From a virus: a stretch of 35,424 bases of DNA. Where the stretch lies: the UHGV virus genome UHGV-0155082. The stretch is one strand, 5' to 3'. Under the pieces are notes generated by a model, which searched no databases, was not told where the DNA came from, and saw only the letters and a program-made list of their open reading frames with translations. The translations under genes and the position numbers were made by a program. This document shows, piece by piece, positions 1 through 35,424 of this stretch (position 1 is the stretch's first letter; the number at the start of each line of letters is the position of its first letter).

Positions 1-49
1 AAGCATTTTTAATGTTATGCCGCCAAAGTGCCGCCACTGCATTTGATTG

Positions 50-1579
50 TTAGTTTTCATTTTGGGAAATTTTTTCCAGAACTGAGTCAACCATTTTTAT
101 TCCCATCTCATTTACTACATCAGAATTAATAACTCTATCAAAATAGCTTTCTATATGTTGGGAAAAAAGGAAGGCTGCACTGGATGGTTCTTTGTTCTTT
201 TCAACTGCGTATTGCAGAACCATATGAGGAGGCACATGTGCATTTTTGCAGGATGCAACAAGGTACTCAAATTCATCAAAAGCTAAGCAAAATATATTTT
301 CTTTAGGTATGTGGTAGTCAGTATTGAATTTATCATATATCTTTAGCATCTCAGTTTCTGCATATGTACTGGCAAGGAATGTACCATTACCTAAAAATAA
401 GTTTTTATATGTAATGCATATCACAAAAGATTCTTTCCTGAATGGGGTTATTGTTGCTTTATCGTCTAAGTAAATTTCTCTGTTAACTTCATGAGCTTGC
501 TCGATAGCTTTTAAAACAGACTTTTTTATTTTTCCTGAAATATCCTCTGGCCGTAAAGTAACCATGCCTTTTTGATGTATTTCAACCCCCTTGGCATCAA
601 TGAATATATTTGCATTCGCGTGTGGAAACAAAAAATCAACTACTTTATTATCTTTGGGTAACTTTTCTTTAAGATGATCCTCTGTGATAACAGGAATATT
701 ACTCTCTTGAATAATTTTTCCTAATGCTCTTTCGAATACAGTTCCAAAACTGTCCATGAATTTTTCAGCGTCAGTTCTTCTTAAAAGGTCATATATAAAT
801 GTTTGTATGCTTCTTGATGTTAGTTGTGCATGTATCTGGAAATAATCAGAACCTTTTTTGATTAAAGGATTTTCTAAGTACGGTGAAGATGAATAGTATT
901 CTAACAAAGGCTTTTCAAATGTCTTGGATTTTGAAAATTTTGATAGCTCACTGTAATTTATTGAGATTGCATCGAGAAAGTTCTCTACGGTATCTTTGGG
1001 TAAAATAGGGAATAACACACTGAAACTATTGACATTTATTTTTCTGACGGGATGTTCCGTTGTTATTAGTGATATTAAAATGTAAGATAGTTTTAAAAAA
1101 TCATCAATTGAAATGTTTGTTAACTTGAAAAACGATGTCTTTATTTTATGAGTGTTTTCGAGTTGTGAGAATAAAAATACCTGTCTGCTAATGGAGTTTA
1201 TTGCGTCAATTTTTTGATAAATACCTTGTTGGTATAAATTATTTCTTAGAAAAAAATGCACTCCGTTTTTCTTTTCAAGACCAATGGGGATGATACTTAA
1301 AGTTTCATAGGCTTTTTGAAATAGCTTGATGGCTTGATTTTTTGTAAGGGTTTTGAACTTTCTATTCTTGCCTATTACAGATGCTGACCATTTTAAACAT
1401 AAGTTTACTATCCACGGCATATGACGCAGCATGTGTAAATTATCATCAAATTTTTGTAGATTATATTGCATGCAGAATTCAATGAATAATTCGGGGTTAT
1501 AACTTTGAATTTCTGAACGAATAGAGTCCATTCTCAGTTTAGCAACAGCATCTGATTGAATGTCTATATTTTTAATCAC
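50..1579 (-). CDS. Hypothetical 509-aa protein, AT-rich accessory gene immediately downstream of int on the same strand; possible PD-(D/E)xK-like nuclease motif in the C-terminal half
   Basis: Long ORF with GTG start at 1579 preceded on the minus strand by GGAG about 8 nt upstream. Only 12 nt separate it from the int stop. Visibly AT-rich codon usage unlike the phage core. Motif VDFLFPHANANIFIDAKGVE resembles a D...(D/E)xK nuclease core. No family recognised by eye. Confidence 0.55.
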   Translation of the reverse strand: MIKNIDIQSDAVAKLRMDSIRSEIQSYNPELFIEFCMQYNLQKFDDNLHMLRHMPWIVNLCLKWSASVIGKNRKFKTLTKNQAIKLFQKAYETLSIIPIGLEKKNGVHFFLRNNLYQQGIYQKIDAINSISRQVFLFSQLENTHKIKTSFFKLTNISIDDFLKLSYILISLITTEHPVRKINVNSFSVLFPILPKDTVENFLDAISINYSELSKFSKSKTFEKPLLEYYSSSPYLENPLIKKGSDYFQIHAQLTSRSIQTFIYDLLRRTDAEKFMDSFGTVFERALGKIIQESNIPVITEDHLKEKLPKDNKVVDFLFPHANANIFIDAKGVEIHQKGMVTLRPEDISGKIKKSVLKAIEQAHEVNREIYLDDKATITPFRKESFVICITYKNLFLGNGTFLASTYAETEMLKIYDKFNTDYHIPKENIFCLAFDEFEYLVASCKNAHVPPHMVLQYAVEKNKEPSSAAFLFSQHIESYFDRVINSDVVNEMGIKMVDSVLEKISQNEN

Positions 1580-1591
1580 GATTATTCTCCA

Positions 1592-2605
1592 TTATAAATT
1601 GTGCAGAGGATTTTTGGTCACAGCATCTTCAAGATGTTCTGGGGCAAAATGAGCGTAAACCATTGTCATTTTAATATCTGAGTGCCCAAGAATATCGCGC
1701 AGAACCAGAATATTCCCGCCATTCATCATAAAATGACTGGCGAATGTATGACGCAGCACGTGGGTGCATTGGCCCTCTGGTAGCTCGATGCCTGCTCGCT
1801 TTACTGCTCGTTCAAAGGCTTTTCTGCACGGGGTGAATAGCTTCCCTCTGTTCTTGGGGAGTTCGTCATACAGATTTTGAGATATCGGCACGGTACGATT
1901 TTTCTTACCTTTTGTCTTGGTATAGGTGATCCGGTATTTTGATAACTGATGGCCCTGCAGGTTTTCTGCTTCACTCCATCGCGCACCAGTAGCCAGGCAT
2001 ATTTTTGCAATCATTAGTAGGCTGGTGTTTTGAGATTCGGCGCAGGCATTAAGCAGGCGTTTGATTTCGTCCGTGGAAAGAAAAGCCAGTTCACCTTCAG
2101 CAATTTTGAAGGTTGGAAGCCCAGCCAGCGGGTTTGGTGCGGACCAGTGTCCTAGTTTTTTCAATGTACCGAACACCGATGACAGGTTACGCTGCTCAAG
2201 ATTAACTGTGCGAGGTTTAACGGGTGACATGAACGAGCCGTCTTCATTTTGGACCTCCCCCTTTAATCTGGCTTCCCGATATTTTGTGAAATCACCTGCT
2301 GTCAGCTCAGAGGCGATGGGATCGCCTAGACCATTACAGATAATTCTAAGTTTCGCCATCAGGCGTTTGGGGTCTGCGAGTGTTTGACCATATAGGGAAT
2401 ACCACTGCTCAATCACTTCTGATAATCGCCGCCGATCTTCCTTCTCACCAAGCCATGGCTTTTTGTTTACTTCGTCCATGGTGAAGTTTTCGAATGCTAT
2501 GGCTTCGCCTTTCGTGGCAAATTGCTTACGCACGCGCTTGCCATTGCGTCCATTGGGATAGCACTCACACAACCATTTTCCGTTCGGCTGTTTTCTGATG
2601 GTCAT
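1592..2605 (-). CDS. int: Phage integrase, tyrosine site-specific recombinase (P2 Int-like)
   Basis: 337 aa, same length as P2 Int. C-terminal catalytic region ...CTHVLRHTFASHF...LGHSDIKMTMVYAHF contains the R/H-x-x-R-H...Y signature of tyrosine recombinases. Sits directly downstream of the repressor gene, as in the P2 C-int operon. Confidence 0.9.
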   Translation of the reverse strand: MTIRKQPNGKWLCECYPNGRNGKRVRKQFATKGEAIAFENFTMDEVNKKPWLGEKEDRRRLSEVIEQWYSLYGQTLADPKRLMAKLRIICNGLGDPIASELTAGDFTKYREARLKGEVQNEDGSFMSPVKPRTVNLEQRNLSSVFGTLKKLGHWSAPNPLAGLPTFKIAEGELAFLSTDEIKRLLNACAESQNTSLLMIAKICLATGARWSEAENLQGHQLSKYRITYTKTKGKKNRTVPISQNLYDELPKNRGKLFTPCRKAFERAVKRAGIELPEGQCTHVLRHTFASHFMMNGGNILVLRDILGHSDIKMTMVYAHFAPEHLEDAVTKNPLHNL

Positions 2606-2606
2606 A

Positions 2607-3239
2607 TCAAAGGCTCTTAATGATTTTCAGTGCACGGCCTACTACCTCAATGTCATCCAGGCCACACTCAAACGATGAATCATCCTGATGCACTACTAAT
2701 CTGTTTCCCGGGAGTCGAGTCAATTTAACAATGCTTTTTATCCCGTCGATATCGACTAACCACATACCATTCACTGGTGGTGTTTGGTTGCGATCTATTA
2801 AATAAGAATCACCGGAAGTAGTCACCAGCAGCAGGTTGCTTGAGTCTGAGGGGAGTATGCTGCTATCAATGATTGCTTTTCCAGCATCGACCAATAAACC
2901 ACCGTTGAGAGTTGCCTTGTCAATTTCAGGAGATACAAGCTCAGAAAGAGGTTTAACTTTGCTTGAGTTCACGAAATTGATATTTTTTTTAGGGTCAATA
3001 TTTGAACCTGGCTCGCCCTGTCCGGTGGTTAGCCACAGTAAAGAAACTCCTGTTTCCAGGGCGCACTGAATCACCCACTCAGCTGGAAAACTATCTCTTA
3101 AATATCTGTTTGCCATGGTACTTTTTGATGCGCCTAAGTGATCGCAAAGTTGCTGTCTGGACTTGAAATCATAGGCTGCCATTAGTCTATGGATAGCCTC
3201 TCTTCCCCCTGTATTCTCACCAGCCTTTACTTGTACCAT
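2607..3239 (-). CDS. Immunity repressor, 186 CI-type (N-terminal HTH, C-terminal S24/oligomerisation-like domain)
   Basis: 210 aa. N-terminal HTH-like segment KSRQQLCDHLGASKSTMANRYL. C-terminal GMWLVDIDGIKSIVKL resembles LexA/CI-type beta domain. Positioned divergently from the cox/apl-like gene and upstream of int. Confidence 0.7.
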   Translation of the reverse strand: MVQVKAGENTGGREAIHRLMAAYDFKSRQQLCDHLGASKSTMANRYLRDSFPAEWVIQCALETGVSLLWLTTGQGEPGSNIDPKKNINFVNSSKVKPLSELVSPEIDKATLNGGLLVDAGKAIIDSSILPSDSSNLLLVTTSGDSYLIDRNQTPPVNGMWLVDIDGIKSIVKLTRLPGNRLVVHQDDSSFECGLDDIEVVGRALKIIKSL

Positions 3240-6038: not shown

Positions 6039-8449
6039 GTCATGCCGATATGAACAACTGCTGCGGCTTTAACGAAGCTGCCGCATCGTTCTCATGGAAC
6101 AGCCCGAAAAAGGCCATTAACCCTTATCTGGACCCGGTGGAAGTTGCGCCGGTTTCTACGCTTTCAAACCTGATCACTCTGTACGCTGCCGATAACGAGC
6201 AGGAACAGCTGCGCCGTGAGGCGCTGAGTGATCAGGTCTGGGAGCGTTATTTCTTTAATGAATCCCGTGATCCTGTCCAGCGCGAAATGGAACAGGATAA
6301 GCTCATTAGTCGGGCAAAGCTGGCGCATGAGCAGCAGCGTTTTAATCCGGATATGGTCATTCTGGCGGACGTCAACGCCCAGCCCTCCCATATCAGCAAG
6401 CCGCTGATGCAACGTATTGAATATTTCAGCAGCCTGGGCAGGCCAAAGGCTTATTCCCGCTATTTGCGTGAGACGATTAAGCCATGTCTGGAACGACTGG
6501 AGCATGTCCGCGACTGTCAGCTATCCACTTCTTTTCGCTTTATGGCAAGCCATGAAGGGCTGGATGGCCTGCTTATCCTGCCTGAAATGAGTCAGGATCA
6601 GGTGAAGCGCCTGTCTACCCTTGTCGCTGCGCATATGAGCATGTGCCTTGATGCCGCTTGTGGTGATTTGTATGCCACCGATGACGTTAAGCCAGAAGAA
6701 ATCCGCAAAACATGGGAAAAGGTGGCAGCGGAAACCCTGCGTCTGGATGTTATTCCGCCTGCGTTTGAGCAACTCCGTCGGAAAAGAAACCGCCGTAAAC
6801 CCGTGCCCTATGAACTCATTCCGGGTTCGTTGGCGCGTATGTTGTGTGCCGACTGGTGGTATCGGAAATTATGGAAGATGCGTTGCGAATGGCGGGAAGA
6901 GCAGTTGCGTGCTGTCTGCCTGGTCAGCAAAAAAGCATCCCCCTATGTCAGCTATGAAGCCGTGATGCATAAACGTGAGCAGCGCCGTAAGTCGCTGGAG
7001 TTTTTCCGTTCTCATGAACTGGTGAACGAAGACGGCGACACGCTGGATATGGAAGATGTGGTAAACGCCAGCAGCAGCAACCCGGCGCATCGCCGCAATG
7101 AGATGATGGCCTGTGTTAAAGGTCTGGAGCTTATCGCGGAAATGCGCAGTGACTGCGCCGTTTTCTACACTATCACCTGTCCGTCGCGTTTCCATTCCAC
7201 GCTCAATAACGGCAGACCCAACCCGACCTGGACAAACTCGACGGTAAGACAAAGCAGCGACTATCTGGTCGGCATGTTTGCTGCATTTCGTAAGGCGATG
7301 CACAAAGCCGGATTGCGCTGGTATGGCGTGCGGGTGGCTGAGCCGCATCATGACGGTACAGTTCACTGGCACCTGTTGTGTTTTATGCGCAAAAAAGACC
7401 GCCGCGCCATCACTGCATTACTGCGTAAGTTTGCCATCCGTGAAGACCGCGAGGAGCTGGGCAATAACACTGGGCCGCGCTTTAAGTCTGAGTTGATTAA
7501 CCCGCGCAAAGGAACGCCGACAAGCTACATCGCGAAATATATCAGTAAGAACATTGACGGGCGTGGTCTGGCTGGCGAGATCAGCAAGGAAACGGGTAAA
7601 TCTCTGCGTGATAACGCTGAATACGTTAATGCCTGGGCGTCTCTGCATCGTGTTCAGCAATTCCGCTTCTTTGGCATTCCGGGGCGTCAGGCTTACCGTG
7701 AACTGCGATTGCTGGCTGGTCAGGCGGCAAGGCAACAGGGTGACAAAAAAGCAGGTGCTCCGGTACTGGATAACCCGCGCCTTGATGCCATTCTGGCTGC
7801 TGCTGATGCTGGCTGTTTTGCCACCTACATTATGAAGCAGGGCGGCGTGTTGGTTCCCCGCAAATATCACTTGATCAGAACCGCTTATGAAATCAACGAA
7901 GAGCCGACCGCCTATGGCGATCACGGCATTCGTATTTATGGCATCTGGTCACCCATTGCAGAGGGCAAGATCTGCACTCATGCAGTGAAGTGGAAAATGG
8001 TTCGTAAGGCCGTTGACGTTCAGGAGGCGGCAGCCGACCAGGGCGCTTGCGCCCCTTGGACTCGTGGCAATAACTGTCCCCTTGCTGAAAATTTGTACCA
8101 ACAAGGGAAAGACAAATCAGCTGATGGAGATACCAGAACGGATATCACCCGCATGGATGACAAGGAGTTGCACGATTACCTGCACAGTATGAGCAAAAAA
8201 GAGCGCCGGGAACTGGCTGCAAGGTTACGCCTGGTGAAACCGAAACGGCGTAAAGACTACAAACAGCGAATTACAGACCATCAGCGACAGCAGCTCGTCT
8301 ATGAACTGGAGTCCAGAGGATTTAATGGCAGCGAGAAAGAGGTCGATTTACTCCTTCGCGGCGGCAGTATTCCGTCAGGAGCAGGTCTGCGTATCTTCTA
8401 TCGGAACCAGCGTTTGCAGGAAGATGATAAGTGGCGAAACCTGTATTAA
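6035..8449 (+). CDS. A: Replication initiation endonuclease (P2 gpA-like rolling-circle initiator)
   Basis: 804 aa. HUH-type motif VHWHLLCF and paired active-site tyrosines YIAKYISKN. Start overlaps the dam stop (ATGA). Position after the early genes as in P2. Confidence 0.9.
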
Positions 8450-8602: not shown

Positions 8603-8791
8603 ATGCAGGACTATTTTTTGGAGTCTTTGAAGCTCCAGCGCATTGATTTTTTTCTTAAGCTTGTAGCGGCTAGTGAGTGTAGTGATGAAGAGAAGGGGCT
8701 GGCTTTGCAGTGGGTTTCTGAACTGACAGATGAACTCATGGCAAAAATCAGAAGCCACGAATACAACCGCTCAATGGATGTCATCAGCTGA
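8603..8791 (+). CDS. Small SOS-regulated protein (62 aa), possible Tum-like antirepressor
   Basis: ATG at 8603 preceded by AGGAGG. Directly downstream of the LexA box. Followed by a DinI-like ORF, an arrangement reminiscent of 186 tum. Confidence 0.45.
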   Translation: MQDYFLESLKLQRIDFFLKLVAASECSDEEKGLALQWVSELTDELMAKIRSHEYNRSMDVIS

Positions 8792-8801
8792 GGGGACTTT
8801 T

Positions 8802-9035
8802 ATGCGCATTGAAATAATGATCGATAAAGAGCAGAAGATTAGCCAGTCTACCCTGGACGCCCTTGAATCCGAGCTTTACCGCAATCTGCGCCCCCTGTAT
8901 CCCAAAACGGTAATTCGTATCCGTAAAGGTAGCTCTAACGGTGTGGAACTGACCGGACTGCAACTGGACGAAGAAAGGAAGCAAGTGATGAAAATTATGC
9001 AGAAGGTGTGGGAAGACGACAGCTGGCTGCATTAA
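8802..9035 (+). CDS. DinI-family protein
   Basis: 77 aa starting MRIEIMIDK...; the pattern MRIE..I.K......DAL..EL.R.......P....V.....S.......G..........I..I....WE..D.W matches E. coli DinI. RBS GAGGGGA upstream. Confidence 0.75.
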   Translation: MRIEIMIDKEQKISQSTLDALESELYRNLRPLYPKTVIRIRKGSSNGVELTGLQLDEERKQVMKIMQKVWEDDSWLH

Positions 9036-9305: not shown

Positions 9306-9521
9306 ATGTCAAGCATCGCCGCATTTAGCCTGGGTAACCCAGTTGAACGTCTGGCAAGGGTTCTTAAAGAGAACCAGGACAAACTCAATCTTAGTAAAGA
9401 TGGTTTTGTGTCCGTAGACTTGTCTAACAAAAGAGCAATGGATGCCATCAAGGCACAGATGGATAAGCTTGAAGGCATCAAAACGAGCACTGTAAAAGAG
9501 AAAACTAATAGAACCAGATAA
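9306..9521 (+). CDS. Hypothetical 71-aa soluble protein, first gene of a two-gene accessory operon
   Basis: ATG preceded by AAGGGGGAG. Stop TAA overlaps the ATG of the downstream 280-aa gene (TAATG). No recognisable motif. Confidence 0.5.
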   Translation: MSSIAAFSLGNPVERLARVLKENQDKLNLSKDGFVSVDLSNKRAMDAIKAQMDKLEGIKTSTVKEKTNRTR

Positions 9522-10363
9522 TGGCAACATTACTTTTAGCAGTGATTTTGGTTAGTGGTTTTATTTATGTAAACCTATCACTTTCAACAAGATACCGATA
9601 TAAGCGTTCCAACGGCTGGGACGCTTATTTTTTTGTGGCTGCCTGGGGTATCGTTTTTTTTCTCCTTGGCGGTTTTTTCACCTTTATTTTGAACGTCAGC
9701 GGAGGGTTTCGTTGGCTGGCTAATGCCTTGAATCTAACACCTGACAGTTTTAATGGCATGTTGTCTTCATCGAAAGACAAACTTCAAAGAATAAATGAAA
9801 TCAAACAGATAGCATGGGTTATGATTTCAATTGTCCTCGCTGCGATTTCAGGTTTTGGAAATAAGTTACGCACATCACGTGGAGATCGTCGCTGGGATGC
9901 CTTAGCTAAAGCTGTGGGTAATAACGCTTTCGAATCATTACTCATGGAAGCGTCCGCAAGACAGTTTCCGATCATAGCAACTCTGTCGTCTCGCAAAATC
10001 TATGTTGGTCTTGTTACTTGTCCGGCGTTAGAAAACGGGCTTTCAGAGCACCTTGAACTTCTCCCGATGTTAAGCGGATATCGGGATAAAGATGATCTAA
10101 CGATTAGTATCACGACTAACTATCACCAACATTATCTTGATAGTGGTGTGATAAGTGGAATGTCTCGTCTTAATATCGAAGATTTCCGTGTGCTCATACC
10201 AAAAGATGAGGTTGAAACAATTTCGTTTTTTGATACTGAGACATATAACAAATTTAAAGAAAATGAAGCCAGGGATAGAAAGAGCTGTCGAAAGATTGGT
10301 AGTAAAAGTGCATCTTCGCGCAGCAAGCGTGCAGCAGATGCTGAGTCAAATGATCGTGCATGA
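9521..10363 (+). CDS. Hypothetical 280-aa integral membrane protein (three predicted TM helices plus a charged C-terminal domain)
   Basis: Hydrophobic segments LLLAVILVSGFIYVNLSL, AYFFVAAWGIVFFLLGGFFTFIL and IAWVMISIVLAAISGFG. Lysine/serine/arginine-rich C-terminal tail. Occupies the position of tin/old in P2. Followed by a terminator. Confidence 0.6.
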   Translation: MATLLLAVILVSGFIYVNLSLSTRYRYKRSNGWDAYFFVAAWGIVFFLLGGFFTFILNVSGGFRWLANALNLTPDSFNGMLSSSKDKLQRINEIKQIAWVMISIVLAAISGFGNKLRTSRGDRRWDALAKAVGNNAFESLLMEASARQFPIIATLSSRKIYVGLVTCPALENGLSEHLELLPMLSGYRDKDDLTISITTNYHQHYLDSGVISGMSRLNIEDFRVLIPKDEVETISFFDTETYNKFKENEARDRKSCRKIGSKSASSRSKRAADAESNDRA

Positions 10364-10588: not shown

Positions 10589-11134
10589 ATGGACGTTATA
10601 ACTGGAGTTGCAGAGTTTTTTCGAAAAGTACCTGCAGCATTTCTTGTGGCTATTACATGTGTTTTAGGTCTTATACTTTTTCTGCCAGACTCTTTGGCAG
10701 TAAAAGTGGCTGTTGATGGCTTTCGTAATGAGTATAGGATTTTTATTGGACCTGCATTTTTACTGTCTGTATCTTATTTAGTTGCAAGAGTCTATCTCTC
10801 TTTCTATGACTTACTTGGTGAAAGGCAGGCTAAGAAGGTACGCACTTCCTACCTTGAGAAGCTAACAGCAGAAGAAAAAGGATATTTAAAGTCTTATATT
10901 ACCGAAGGTGTTAATTCACTTATGTGTGGGCCTGAGGATGGGGTCATGGGGGGACTTGTGGCTAAGGGGATTACTTATAGAGCCACCAGTGTTGGGGATA
11001 TGATCTACGGTTTTGCTTTCAACTTACAGCCATGGGCGCGTGAACATTTAGAGAAAAATAGTCATTTATTAGATGGGGCTATTGGGCGTGCAATGACTCC
11101 AAGAGAAAAATTAAACTTTAGATTGGGACGCTAA
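10589..11134 (+). CDS. Hypothetical 181-aa membrane protein, possibly a superinfection-exclusion (SieB-like) protein
   Basis: ATG preceded by GGAGG. N-terminal TM helix AAFLVAITCVLGLILFLP and a second hydrophobic segment IFIGPAFLLSVSYLVARVYL. Lies between the cos-like element and the portal gene. SieB assignment is from weak recollection only. Confidence 0.45.
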   Translation: MDVITGVAEFFRKVPAAFLVAITCVLGLILFLPDSLAVKVAVDGFRNEYRIFIGPAFLLSVSYLVARVYLSFYDLLGERQAKKVRTSYLEKLTAEEKGYLKSYITEGVNSLMCGPEDGVMGGLVAKGITYRATSVGDMIYGFAFNLQPWAREHLEKNSHLLDGAIGRAMTPREKLNFRLGR

Positions 11135-26374: not shown

Positions 26375-26501
26375 CTGAGAATTAAATGGTTAGTATCATC
26401 CTCCCCCACACTGCCTATATGGTATGAATACGAGGGGGAGGCTGTTTGTTGTCTGTTTCTGTGATAATATTAGATTCTCGTTTTTTAATAAAAAAATCAA
26501 T

Positions 26502-27512
26502 ATGAAAGAGAATAAAATACGTTCTGCCGATGGCGTGAGAGGTTTCGCTTTGATGATTGTTGTGGTGATGCATGCTACGGGACTATTCTTTCCCTCACTT
26601 CATGATCATCTCGGAGGTACGGGGCAGCCCGGTGTTTGGTTGTTTTTTGTTCTTAGCGCCTTTTTGTTGACACATAAATTTATTAATTCTGGTTTTTCGT
26701 TTTTGAATGTGTTGAGTTATCTTTTAGGGCGAACAATAAGGATATTACCGATTTTTTATATTGCAGTATTAATTTATTACCTTATGGGATTTTATGATTT
26801 AGAGAAAATGAAATCGATAATTTCATTTGATAGTACTTACATCCATCTCTGGACTATTCCGATAGAATTCAAGTTTTACTTTTTGTTGCCGATTGTGGTT
26901 TATCTCGCATCTAGTATCCAGAAAGTTGCAGGTAGAAAATATTCTTTGTTGTTTTTGATATTGTTAACCTTAGCGTTCGCTTTTATATACCCTTATACGG
27001 ATGACGAAATCAACGGTAGGCTACCGTATTACATTCCTGTTTTTATGTATGGAATTATAATTGCGTTTATGTATAACTATTTTCAAATTAAAATATCATC
27101 TCTCGTTAGTGATGGGGTGTCAATTGCGATTATATTAATATTTATAATGTTGACCCCTCCTTTTCAGGGGGCTAATGGTTGGCTGGGTAATAAATTTGTG
27201 GTATTAGGGCCATTTATTGCTCTCTTTGTATATCTGCAAGTAAATTCCAGTGGGTATGTAAGCGCGGTTTTATCTTCAAAAATCATGGCGGATTTGGGGA
27301 AATATAGTTTTTCAATTTATTTGTTTCATATAATGATAATTTTTATTGTTTATCCTAAATTTTTGGATAATGTTACTGCATACTTAGTTACTATAGCTTT
27401 ATGTATTGGCGGTGGGGCTATTGCCTATCATTGCATTGAATCTCCCTTGGAATCGTTCAGACATAAGCTTATGAAAAGAATAACGCAGGCTTATCAGAAT
27501 CAAAATATTTAA
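26502..27512 (+). CDS. Acyltransferase family 3 integral membrane protein (OafA/Oac-like, probable O-antigen/LPS acyltransferase)
   Basis: AT-rich ORF; the six-frame ORF begins at 26424 and the likely ATG is at 26502. N-terminal R-x-x-D-G-V-R-G-x-A...H motif (IRSADGVRGFALMIVVVMHATG) of the acyltransferase_3 family. About 10 hydrophobic segments. Located between G and FI. Confidence 0.75.
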   Translation: MKENKIRSADGVRGFALMIVVVMHATGLFFPSLHDHLGGTGQPGVWLFFVLSAFLLTHKFINSGFSFLNVLSYLLGRTIRILPIFYIAVLIYYLMGFYDLEKMKSIISFDSTYIHLWTIPIEFKFYFLLPIVVYLASSIQKVAGRKYSLLFLILLTLAFAFIYPYTDDEINGRLPYYIPVFMYGIIIAFMYNYFQIKISSLVSDGVSIAIILIFIMLTPPFQGANGWLGNKFVVLGPFIALFVYLQVNSSGYVSAVLSSKIMADLGKYSFSIYLFHIMIIFIVYPKFLDNVTAYLVTIALCIGGGAIAYHCIESPLESFRHKLMKRITQAYQNQNI

Positions 27513-34578: not shown

Positions 34579-34649
34579 ATGGTTCTCAATATTGATATTT
34601 TGTGTATCATTGCAATGATTCTGATAGCAAAGGTAGGGGTCTGGATATG

Positions 34650-34865
34650 ATGAATTGTCCAAAGTGTGGTCATGCGGCGCACACAAGGAGCAGTTTTCAA
34701 GTAACAGAAAGCACCAAAGAGCGTTACTGCCAGTGCCAAAATATTAACTGCGGGAGCACTTTTGTTACCCATGAAACAGTGGTCCGGTTTATTGTGACAC
34801 CTGCATTGATTGCTACAGCCCCTCCACATCCATTGCCAGGTGGTCAGGGGCATATGAATTTTTAA
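34650..34865 (+). CDS. ogr: Late gene transcriptional activator, Ogr/Delta zinc-finger family
   Basis: MNCPKCGHAAHTRSS...ERYCQCQNINCGSTF gives the C-x2-C-x22-C-x4-C zinc finger and ...HPLPGGQ tail characteristic of P2 Ogr. The six-frame ORF begins at 34602; ATGs at 34647 and 34650. Confidence 0.85.
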   Translation: MNCPKCGHAAHTRSSFQVTESTKERYCQCQNINCGSTFVTHETVVRFIVTPALIATAPPHPLPGGQGHMNF

Positions 34866-34872
34866 GAAAGAG

Positions 34873-34894
34873 AACCTGCTACGGCAGGTTTTTA
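34873..34894. terminator. Bidirectional rho-independent terminator between ogr and the convergent BRCT-domain gene
   Basis: Hairpin aacctgc-tacg-gcaggtt followed by TTTTTATT on the plus strand; T-rich on the other strand as well. Confidence 0.65.
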
Positions 34895-35374
34895 TTCATC
34901 TGGGATCTCACCCGTTTCAAGAAAATGTATAAAGCCAGGCTCATCTATGATGATTGTGCCTTTCATCCTGGCTGCCGATACTTTTGATGGGCCTGCATTG
35001 TAACCGCAACAGAGCATCTGAAGGCTTTGGGTTACAGAGGTTCTTACCGTTAATCCTTGGTCATTCGCCTTATCAACCAATCTTTCTTTATCTGCTTTCT
35101 TAAATCCGGTGAAACACACATCGAATGTATTTTTTTTCGGACCTGACTGCTTAGTGAGATGTGAGTAGTTTTCGGGGAGGAATGACGCGCATTCCTGAAT
35201 GGCTTGTTCTGGTGAATCGTACTGTTTAAGAATGCGGTCTTTTCGGAAGGTTTTTATTCGATCGGTGTTTTTACAAATGCCCTGTATATGATTTTCGCTA
35301 TAACTGATGCTCTGTATAGAGTGAACACCGATACGACCATTTGCATTGATGTAAACAAAGTGAAGTTCTTCCAT
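34892..35374 (-). CDS. Small BRCT-domain protein (160 aa), function unknown
   Basis: The C-terminal 80 aa (FDVCFTGFKKADKERLVDKANDQGLTVRTSVTQSLQMLCCGYNAGPSKVSAARMKGTIIIDEPGFIHFL) align by eye to the NAD-ligase BRCT domain pattern (TG...R..a......G..v..SV...t..lv.G..aGsK..kA...G..iI.E..f). N-terminal 70 aa unassigned. Confidence 0.5.
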   Translation of the reverse strand: MEELHFVYINANGRIGVHSIQSISYSENHIQGICKNTDRIKTFRKDRILKQYDSPEQAIQECASFLPENYSHLTKQSGPKKNTFDVCFTGFKKADKERLVDKANDQGLTVRTSVTQSLQMLCCGYNAGPSKVSAARMKGTIIIDEPGFIHFLETGEIPDE

Positions 35375-35424
35375 GTGAAACCTCTTTGCATGATTTCAAG
35401 ATGGCGACAGGCAAGATGGACGCA

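Follow-up and report, generated by a model that had tools for sequence, protein, structure and literature searches.

What does the small gene near the right end of a P2-like prophage encode, and what might it do for the phage that carries it? The window analyzed here, the whole 35,424-nucleotide stretch of UHGV virus genome UHGV-0155082, is a complete P2-like prophage of the Elveevirus lineage. The gene in question is a 160-amino-acid open reading frame on the minus strand (34892..35374), with an ATG start, a stop codon at 34892-34894 and, read from the sequence, a strong Shine-Dalgarno motif, AGAGG, 6 nt 5' of the ATG (35381..35385, minus strand). It converges on ogr (34647..34865, plus strand), the late transcription activator, which was recognized by Pfam Ogr_Delta (1.3e-20) and by the RefSeq annotation of a 98.9%-identical locus. 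The convergent arrangement, with stop codons 26 bp apart, had been claimed in an earlier note on this DNA and agrees exactly with the list of open reading frames. The same note proposed that the two genes share a bidirectional terminator, and the intergenic sequence is indeed terminator-like: a hairpin common to both genes (34873..34890, both strands; AACCTGC-TACG-GCAGGTT) has a 7-bp GC-rich stem with T-rich tails on both strands and a ΔG of -17.3 kcal/mol (z = -6.3), and none of 200 shuffled sequences folded equally well.

The C-terminal half of the protein, residues 83 to 160 (34895..35128, minus strand), is a BRCT domain. The earlier note had read it as a BRCT of the type found in NAD-dependent ligases, and both the fold and the profile matches bear this out. 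The AF2 model shows the β1-α1-β2-β3-α2-β4-α3 order of the BRCT fold. With the Pfam BRCT model (PF00533) the window protein scores 19.0 bits (E 0.0017) against a gathering threshold of 21.3 bits; the model matches 31 of 44 homologues at an E value of 0.01 or below, and several relatives score above the threshold (P0131, 54.3 bits; P0128, 46.3 bits). The best sequence matches of the family profile are the BRCT domains of LigA and RFC1 (3.9e-5 and 4.7e-5). The stretch F88-T89-G90-F91 is invariant, as is K131 of the motif A127-G-P-x-K131; residues T89, G90 and K131, the same in all 44 sequences, lie directly after the strand at 85-89 and at the start of the helix at 129-137. The phosphate pocket of BRCT domains is made of a Ser/Thr-Gly pair in the β1-α1 loop and a Lys at the N terminus of α2 (PMC10386641), and RFC1 uses the same pocket for DNA-end binding (PMC6334254). 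The invariant T89-G90 and K131 occupy the phosphate-pocket positions of the phosphate-binding BRCT subclass, with ligand binding being putative. The AGPxK motif aligns with AGPKK of yeast Rfc1, in which K208 lines the cavity that receives the 5' end; on its own, the RFC1 BRCT domain binds recessed 5'-phosphate DNA with a Kd of about 10 nM (PMC9293004). The likeness to LigA and RFC1 thus covers the fold, the T-G motif after β1 and the AGPxK motif at α2, and the LigA/RFC1 class binds nicked or 5'-phosphate DNA. The likeness ends at this domain, however: the adenylation, OB, Zn, HhH and AAA+ modules are absent from the window protein, and its BRCT half is acidic (pI 5.3), whereas that of RFC1 is basic; DNA binding by this half is putative.

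The N-terminal domain, which had been left unassigned, is a WYL domain. Residues 1 to 54 (35213..35374, minus strand) are predicted to form a five-stranded, Sm-like barrel, for which WYL domains give the best superposition; its Y8 and T42 are invariant. Pfam WYL (PF13280; threshold 21.8 bits) gave no match to the window protein at an E value of 1 or below; it matched 4 of the 44 homologues (best 1.5e-5), and the fusion relatives P0140, P0246, P0195 and P0204 score 22.8 to 28.5 bits. When an N-terminal profile was compared with solved WYL proteins, the similarity was not significant at the sequence level (PafBC, E 0.78), and the assignment therefore rests on the fold and on the Pfam and PADLOC matches of relatives. 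The near-invariant K41-T-F-R-K-D-R-I48 is the counterpart of the RxFRxDRI signature and aligns to 'VRNFRLDRV' of PafBC. This half of the signature is kept; the W-Y-L triad is degenerate and reads N-H-I. Characterized WYL domains bind single-stranded DNA (ssDNA), and in CapW the contact is made by two arginines that flank the triad (PMC11662680); these correspond to E27 and Q31 in the window protein. On the predicted structure we consider the WYL fold firmly assigned, and from its relatives we infer that the ligand may be a nucleic acid.

The two domains are joined by residues 55 to 82 (35129..35212, minus strand), which the AF2 model renders as two short helices followed by a lower-confidence loop. 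The pLDDT dips to 68 at residues 71 to 80 and the pTM of the full chain is 0.51, so the relative orientation of WYL and BRCT is not fixed by the model. The protein is thus a WYL domain and a LigA/RFC1-type BRCT domain joined by a flexible linker, with no catalytic, helix-turn-helix (HTH) or WCX domain. No HTH family was matched in the window protein by Pfam, the barrel begins at residue 3, and the WCX dimerization domain is absent, the C-terminal half being BRCT instead. The regulators CapW, BrxR, DriD and PafBC are built as wHTH-WYL-WCX, and the window protein, which has neither wHTH nor WCX and carries a BRCT domain after its WYL domain, is for this reason not a member of their family. It also departs from CapW in the residues already described, E27 and Q31 in place of the arginines and N-H-I in place of the triad. 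[quoted passage not shown] Nor is it the stand-alone BRCT protein of the earlier note, which had also stressed the rarity of such proteins in bacteria: the WYL-BRCT module has hundreds of sequence clusters, and Makarova et al. had already included the fusion in a list in 2014, with no remark on it (PMC4012209). Both domains, their fusion and the family are already catalogued (in PHROG, as a RefSeq 'BRCT domain-containing protein', and in Makarova 2014), and a functional characterization was not found; literature searches on WYL/BRCT, phage, prophage and superinfection exclusion returned no functional study of the family.

Database labels would make this open reading frame something else, a fragment of a ligase or exonuclease or a host gene, since PHROG and GenBank records name its relatives 'DNA ligase' or 'putative exonuclease protein'. 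LigA models match only in their last ~100 positions, the BRCT tail, at 10.7 to 19 bits against cutoffs of 369 to 1051, and the LigA adenylation, OB, Zn-finger and HhH domains are absent from a protein of only 160 residues. A DEDDh exonuclease model matches only at profile positions 229 to 307 of 331, again the BRCT tail, with 25.3 bits against a cutoff of 389. The PADLOC model PDC-S48 likewise matches only at positions 335 to 406 of 411 (3.2e-7), and the same holds for longer relatives; what is in common is the C-terminal BRCT region, and the remaining ~330 profile positions are unmatched in the window protein and in the longer fusion relatives. The labels attached to the family in NC_049342.1, NC_008201.1 and NC_070909.1 are misleading, an over-annotation from the BRCT tail.

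The gene, moreover, behaves as an intact unit. It matches phrog_2561 over its full length (3.5e-77), its homologues in a large protein collection form 122 clusters at 90% identity, nearly all of 155 to 175 amino acids, and the 44-member family profile recovers 211 representatives of 50%-identity clusters at an E value of 1e-30 or below and 898 at 1e-10 or below. The dN/dS ratio is 0.108 between the window and Cartapus copies, 0.056 between a Yersinia phage copy and a Citrobacter copy, and 0.090 between a Xenorhabdus copy and a metagenomic one; between the window and Yersinia copies synonymous sites are saturated (pS ~0.9) at a pN of 0.19. The open reading frame is therefore a real gene under purifying selection, far from a chance open reading frame. 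Its conserved 160-residue length, its own start, Shine-Dalgarno sequence and terminator, the purifying selection, the confinement of the LigA and DEDDh matches to BRCT tails and the carriage of the gene in phage genomes all speak against a fragment or host gene, and that reading is already refuted by domain content and context. The earlier note had kept in view the possibility of a conserved host gene whose function is known; this one is a phage gene instead. In the identity of the protein and its genomic context, taken jointly, we have high confidence.

The family is widespread and at the same time patchy. At 95% DNA identity or higher the gene occurs in 179 of 5426 complete Escherichia coli genomes (~3%), and the last 845 bp of the window are 98 to 99% identical to loci in those 179 genomes and in phages Cartapus and 500465-1. 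Within E. coli the gene tracks one lineage (170 full-length copies versus 201 genomes with the window's gpD-ogr variant). Among phage records, 28 carry the gene versus 478 with a gpD homologue. It is accessory yet strongly conserved in the lysogeny module of P2-like phages. Like the morons of P2-like phages, it is carried by phages, dispensable in related phages and placed outside the structural and replication modules, in the repressor-int-attP region.

The earlier note had left two origins open, cargo at the prophage end or a gene beside which the phage had integrated. The first stands, as the gene is carried in free phage genomes; the second does not, because the integration target is ssrA, and a host gene beside the integration site was accordingly rejected. 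In E. coli MARGA_3 the WYL-BRCT gene lies between ogr and the tmRNA gene ssrA, which is followed by smpB, and the order smpB-ssrA-gene-ogr recurs in Citrobacter and Enterobacter. In phage records one strand carries CI, int, an optional cargo gene, a gap of ~288 bp and the WYL-BRCT gene, which is convergent with ogr. The mapping of the att core, suggested in the earlier note, was achieved by aligning attR with the gap upstream of the gene in Cartapus and in Yersinia phage MLG42 (loci compared: L002 6840-6870, L001 6795-7083 and L020 3714-4000). The attP so defined carries, in this order, the final ~45 nt of ssrA (ATGTAGGAATTTCGG...CCACCA), a terminator hairpin that is supplied by the phage and has a 12-bp stem, and tandem TGGCGRCA repeats. 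On the P-arm side, two tandem TGGCGGCA repeats with an 11-bp period lie at 18..36 (minus strand) of the window, as aligned with the attP of Cartapus and MLG42. On the other side, comparison with attR and attP places one arm-type-like copy, TGGCGACAG, in the 5' region of the gene (35402..35410, plus strand), in inverted orientation to the tandem pair on the P' arm of attP, a pair that lies just past the window's right end. This inverted copy sits ~30 nt 5' of the start codon in the E. coli phages and is absent from the Yersinia phage. The tandem repeats on both attP arms are probably Int arm-type sites.

The phage is thus integrated into ssrA, the WYL-BRCT gene is prophage-end cargo adjoining attP, and the P' arm is the gene's own 5' region. 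Given the circular order CI, int, optional cargo, attP, gene in the Elveevirus lineage, integration into ssrA separates the gene from the repressor operon. The integrated gene lies ~125 bp downstream of the tmRNA gene, behind the phage-supplied terminator. At the attR of the window lineage, a promoter search of the interval from the ssrA terminator to the ATG of the gene gave no match to the sigma-70 consensus, and read-through from ssrA is a possible source of its transcription in the prophage. Two neighboring islands were seen in passing. In E. coli MARGA_3 (L016, 1177500-1185500) a second integrase lies by the attL side of the prophage, followed by an ATP-dependent nuclease and helicase pair that is Gabija-like by annotation only, which points to tandem islands at ssrA. 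In Citrobacter (L021) a second integrase element abuts the WYL-BRCT gene.

The remainder of the window is organized as a P2-like phage. Gene order in circular and linear records shows that, in the circular phage, the lysogenic-strand genes at 50..3239 precede the WYL-BRCT gene. They comprise, all on the minus strand, a 186-type CI repressor (2607-3239) and an integrase (1592-2605), both identified with Pfam, and a 509-amino-acid cargo gene between int and attP (50-1579), which belongs to no matched family and gave no match in Pfam, PADLOC or PDB sequences. In Cartapus the slot between int and attP is filled by a 401-amino-acid protein with the annotation 'RES protein, NAD+ binding domain'; E. 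coli MARGA_3 has an HNH endonuclease there, and Yersinia phage MLG42 has no gene. This looks like a variable cargo slot, possibly for defense, with an orphan occupant in the window. Onward from CI, the order is CII, Dam, gpA, a DinI/Tum-like protein, an unmatched 280-amino-acid open reading frame, SieB, the structural genes, gpD and ogr. The 101-amino-acid DinI-like-domain protein (8730-9035, plus strand; 1.3e-22) is probably an SOS-controlled antirepressor of the 186 Tum type. Between the replication/Tum region and the portal gene are the 280-amino-acid open reading frame, for which Pfam gave no match (9521-10363, plus strand), and a homologue of the superinfection-exclusion protein SieB (10589-11134, plus strand; 4.5e-25), in a position that we take to be the old/tin accessory hotspot of P2. 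Among the tail genes is an Acyl_transf_3 acyltransferase (26424-27512, plus strand; 1.1e-26), probably a lysogenic-conversion gene that modifies O-antigen.

Outside this lineage the gene keeps closer company with the repressor. In every other lineage examined the homologue shares its strand with the immunity repressor and lies downstream of it, directly so in most; int usually comes straight after, and the reading frames nearly abut. In one example CI ends at 7998 and the gene starts at 8001, and the gene ends at 7486 and int starts at 7489. The order CI, gene, int is found in two metagenomic P2-like phages, with gaps of 2 to 15 nt, and in Xenorhabdus. In Yersinia ruckeri the gene follows CI, and in Mannheimia phage PHL101 it follows a CI-like repressor, with its annotated ribosome-binding site overlapping the CI end. 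In Serratia a 212-amino-acid gene stands between the repressor and the WYL-BRCT gene, which is followed by int; in Burkholderia phages a 249-amino-acid gene stands between an XRE repressor and the WYL-BRCT gene; and in Vibrio phage PV94 the order is repressor, gene, a 123-amino-acid gene and int. The post-repressor position was seen in eight or more independent contexts, and it suggests that in those lineages the protein is made in lysogens. The accompanying repressors are of three unrelated types: 186-type CI, self-cleaving HTH-S24 and short XRE. This membership of the family in the repressor-int lysogeny module of P2-like phages had no place in the earlier note.

Several relatives depart from the 160-residue form. 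Extended forms are P0123, P0157, P0188 (L017 6001-7218), P0140 and P0183 (L018 545-2182); some relatives have the WYL-BRCT unit fused, on its N- or C-terminal side, to a ~200-amino-acid domain with a 'WTQG' motif, and others have N-terminal transmembrane helices and a second WYL-BRCT unit. Pfam gave no match to the extensions of the fusion relatives. A 405-amino-acid fusion relative with an extra C-terminal domain lies between a repressor-linked gene and int, and in one P2-like phage a cluster that converges on gpD contains a 545-amino-acid membrane-anchored relative with tandem units. One marine homologue is found in an integrase-bearing island and adjoins an Mrr-type nuclease. Phages with short XRE/HTH_3 repressors have an unannotated gene of 212 to 268 amino acids between the repressor and the WYL-BRCT gene (L013 2715-3464, L017 5169-5975 and L008 6317-6955). 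When these intervening genes were compared, similarity was marginal (24% over 92 amino acids), and a conserved partner is not established.

What, then, would such a protein do? Made in lysogens, it would bind single-stranded nucleic acid through the WYL barrel and, through the BRCT pocket (T89, G90 and K131), DNA with a 5'-phosphate end or nick or some other phosphorylated ligand, and the two domains together could recognize a DNA structure such as a gap, nick or junction. As the protein has no effector domain, it would act by occupying or capping this structure or by recruiting something there. We tentatively favor, as the most likely role and at somewhat less than even probability, a lysogenic-conversion factor that serves exclusion or immunity and is directed at DNA that comes in or competes. 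The interval between cI and int is a defense hotspot in P2-related phages of the K139-like group (PMC9122126), and relative to the repressor and int the WYL-BRCT gene shares slot and strand with that hotspot and with the accessory or exclusion genes that lysogens express beside the repressor. A slot known for defense and exclusion, the patchy distribution (28 records versus 478 with gpD) and the membrane-anchored tandem relatives at this phage position, an arrangement that would fit activity against DNA as it enters, are consistent with an exclusion role, and so is the redundancy, taken up below, of a damage sensor for the switch. Against it, the protein shows no significant full-length match to any PADLOC defense model, PDC-S48 being matched only by the BRCT part; E27 and Q31 replace the ssDNA-contacting arginines of CapW, so that something other than ssDNA may be the ligand; the BRCT half, unlike that of RFC1, is acidic; and the search between the ssrA terminator and the ATG found no sigma-70 promoter. 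The gene also differs from the K139-like hotspot genes in having no sequence relation to the tested systems and in an occupancy that is conserved across genera, not rapidly exchanged. Hotspot cargo usually turns over fast, and a slot kept across distant genera could indicate a core lysogeny function.

That last point bears on the main competing explanation, which we consider rather unlikely but more serious than the others: a DNA-damage or ssDNA sensor that feeds the lysis-lysogeny decision. Co-expressed with the repressor, the protein would detect ssDNA through its WYL domain, in the manner of CapW, DriD and PafBC, and relay the signal through its BRCT domain to the repressor, its operators or a further component of the switch, giving a RecA-independent route to induction or to the stabilization of lysogeny. 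A regulatory role would agree with the conservation of the slot across genera, most lineages have the gene next after the immunity repressor within one operon, and characterized WYL regulators respond to ssDNA or DNA damage. A BRCT gene is also paired with cI in the lysis-lysogeny modules of Roseobacter prophages, where cI and BRCT genes have been proposed, as a suggestion only, to be damage responsive (preprint 10.64898/2026.07.02.736140); these are other phages and hosts, however, and the likeness is one of gene pairing. With three unrelated repressor types, including a self-cleaving S24 protein, and a Tum-type antirepressor, a dedicated damage sensor for the switch looks redundant, since S24 repressors and DinI/Tum-type antirepressors already provide damage sensing. 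The protein has no domain that reads DNA sequence, the invariance of the BRCT pocket favors a universal ligand over a repressor partner that varies, and only ~6% of P2-like phage records carry the gene. In most contexts the gene is the neighbor of int, either immediately upstream or immediately across attP, and this position would also suit an accessory factor for recombination at attP and attR, an architectural or directionality cofactor of Int; in the window lineage the 5' region is the P' arm with putative Int arm-type repeats, and both domains plausibly bind DNA. This we regard as improbable, because most P2-like phages integrate without the gene (28 of 478 records carry it), these phages already have a Cox/Apl-type excisionase, and the Burkholderia phages and Mannheimia phage PHL101 have no adjacent annotated int.

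By analogy, the protein might act in trans as a BRCT module, in concert with or in opposition to the NAD-dependent ligase or repair of the host, for example a mimic of the LigA BRCT at nicks, modeled on the separate BRCT-bearing subunit B of the heterodimeric NAD-ligases of T5-like phages (PDB 9hu3_B; phage Eps7 LigB). The odds of this are about as poor as those of an Int cofactor: no ligase catalytic subunit was identified among the scanned open reading frames of the window, the partner domain is WYL and not HhH as in ligases, and encoding in a lysogeny operon, here a lysogeny-module gene, does not fit a replication or early function. Least probable among these functional readings, with only a slim chance of being right, is a role as WYL-type sensor for, or regulator of, the variable cargo gene on the far side of attP, in the way that CapW and BrxR act on adjoining defense operons. 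WYL proteins do often adjoin defense systems under their control, and the int-attP slot is variable and defense-like. The protein has no HTH, however; one and the same protein, at 98% identity or more, occurs with three different cargo genes, the 73%-identical Yersinia copy occurs with none, and in other lineages int lies between the gene and the cargo slot. Returning to exclusion of incoming or competing DNA, a bolder version can be drawn, which we offer as speculation and think less probable than a damage sensor and somewhat more so than an Int cofactor. HTH-less WYL-BRCT proteins would be an unrecognized class of phage lysogeny-module effectors that couple the sensing of single-stranded nucleic acid to the capture of 5'-phosphate nicks or ends, for instance as a LigA-BRCT mimic that blocks the sealing or replication of incoming cos-ended DNA, and integration in the Elveevirus lineage could rewire the expression of the gene, parting it from the repressor-int operon and setting it behind the highly transcribed tmRNA gene.

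WYL domains are known mainly as the ssDNA-sensing part of transcription factors for immune and DNA-damage operons. In the WYL-BRCT family the sensor fold is joined to a BRCT domain and not to a DNA-reading HTH, and the protein is encoded by temperate phages, beside the repressor and integrase, and conserved from Burkholderia to E. coli. The significance is not on the scale of a new system, as neither the domains nor the accessory slot are new and the fusion has been on record since 2014. In practical terms, the gain is the correction of widespread 'DNA ligase' and 'exonuclease' labels. The ligand and role of the protein would show how a WYL signal is used without transcription, and would give a function to a gene that ~3% of complete E. 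coli genomes, and many prophages of Enterobacterales, carry.
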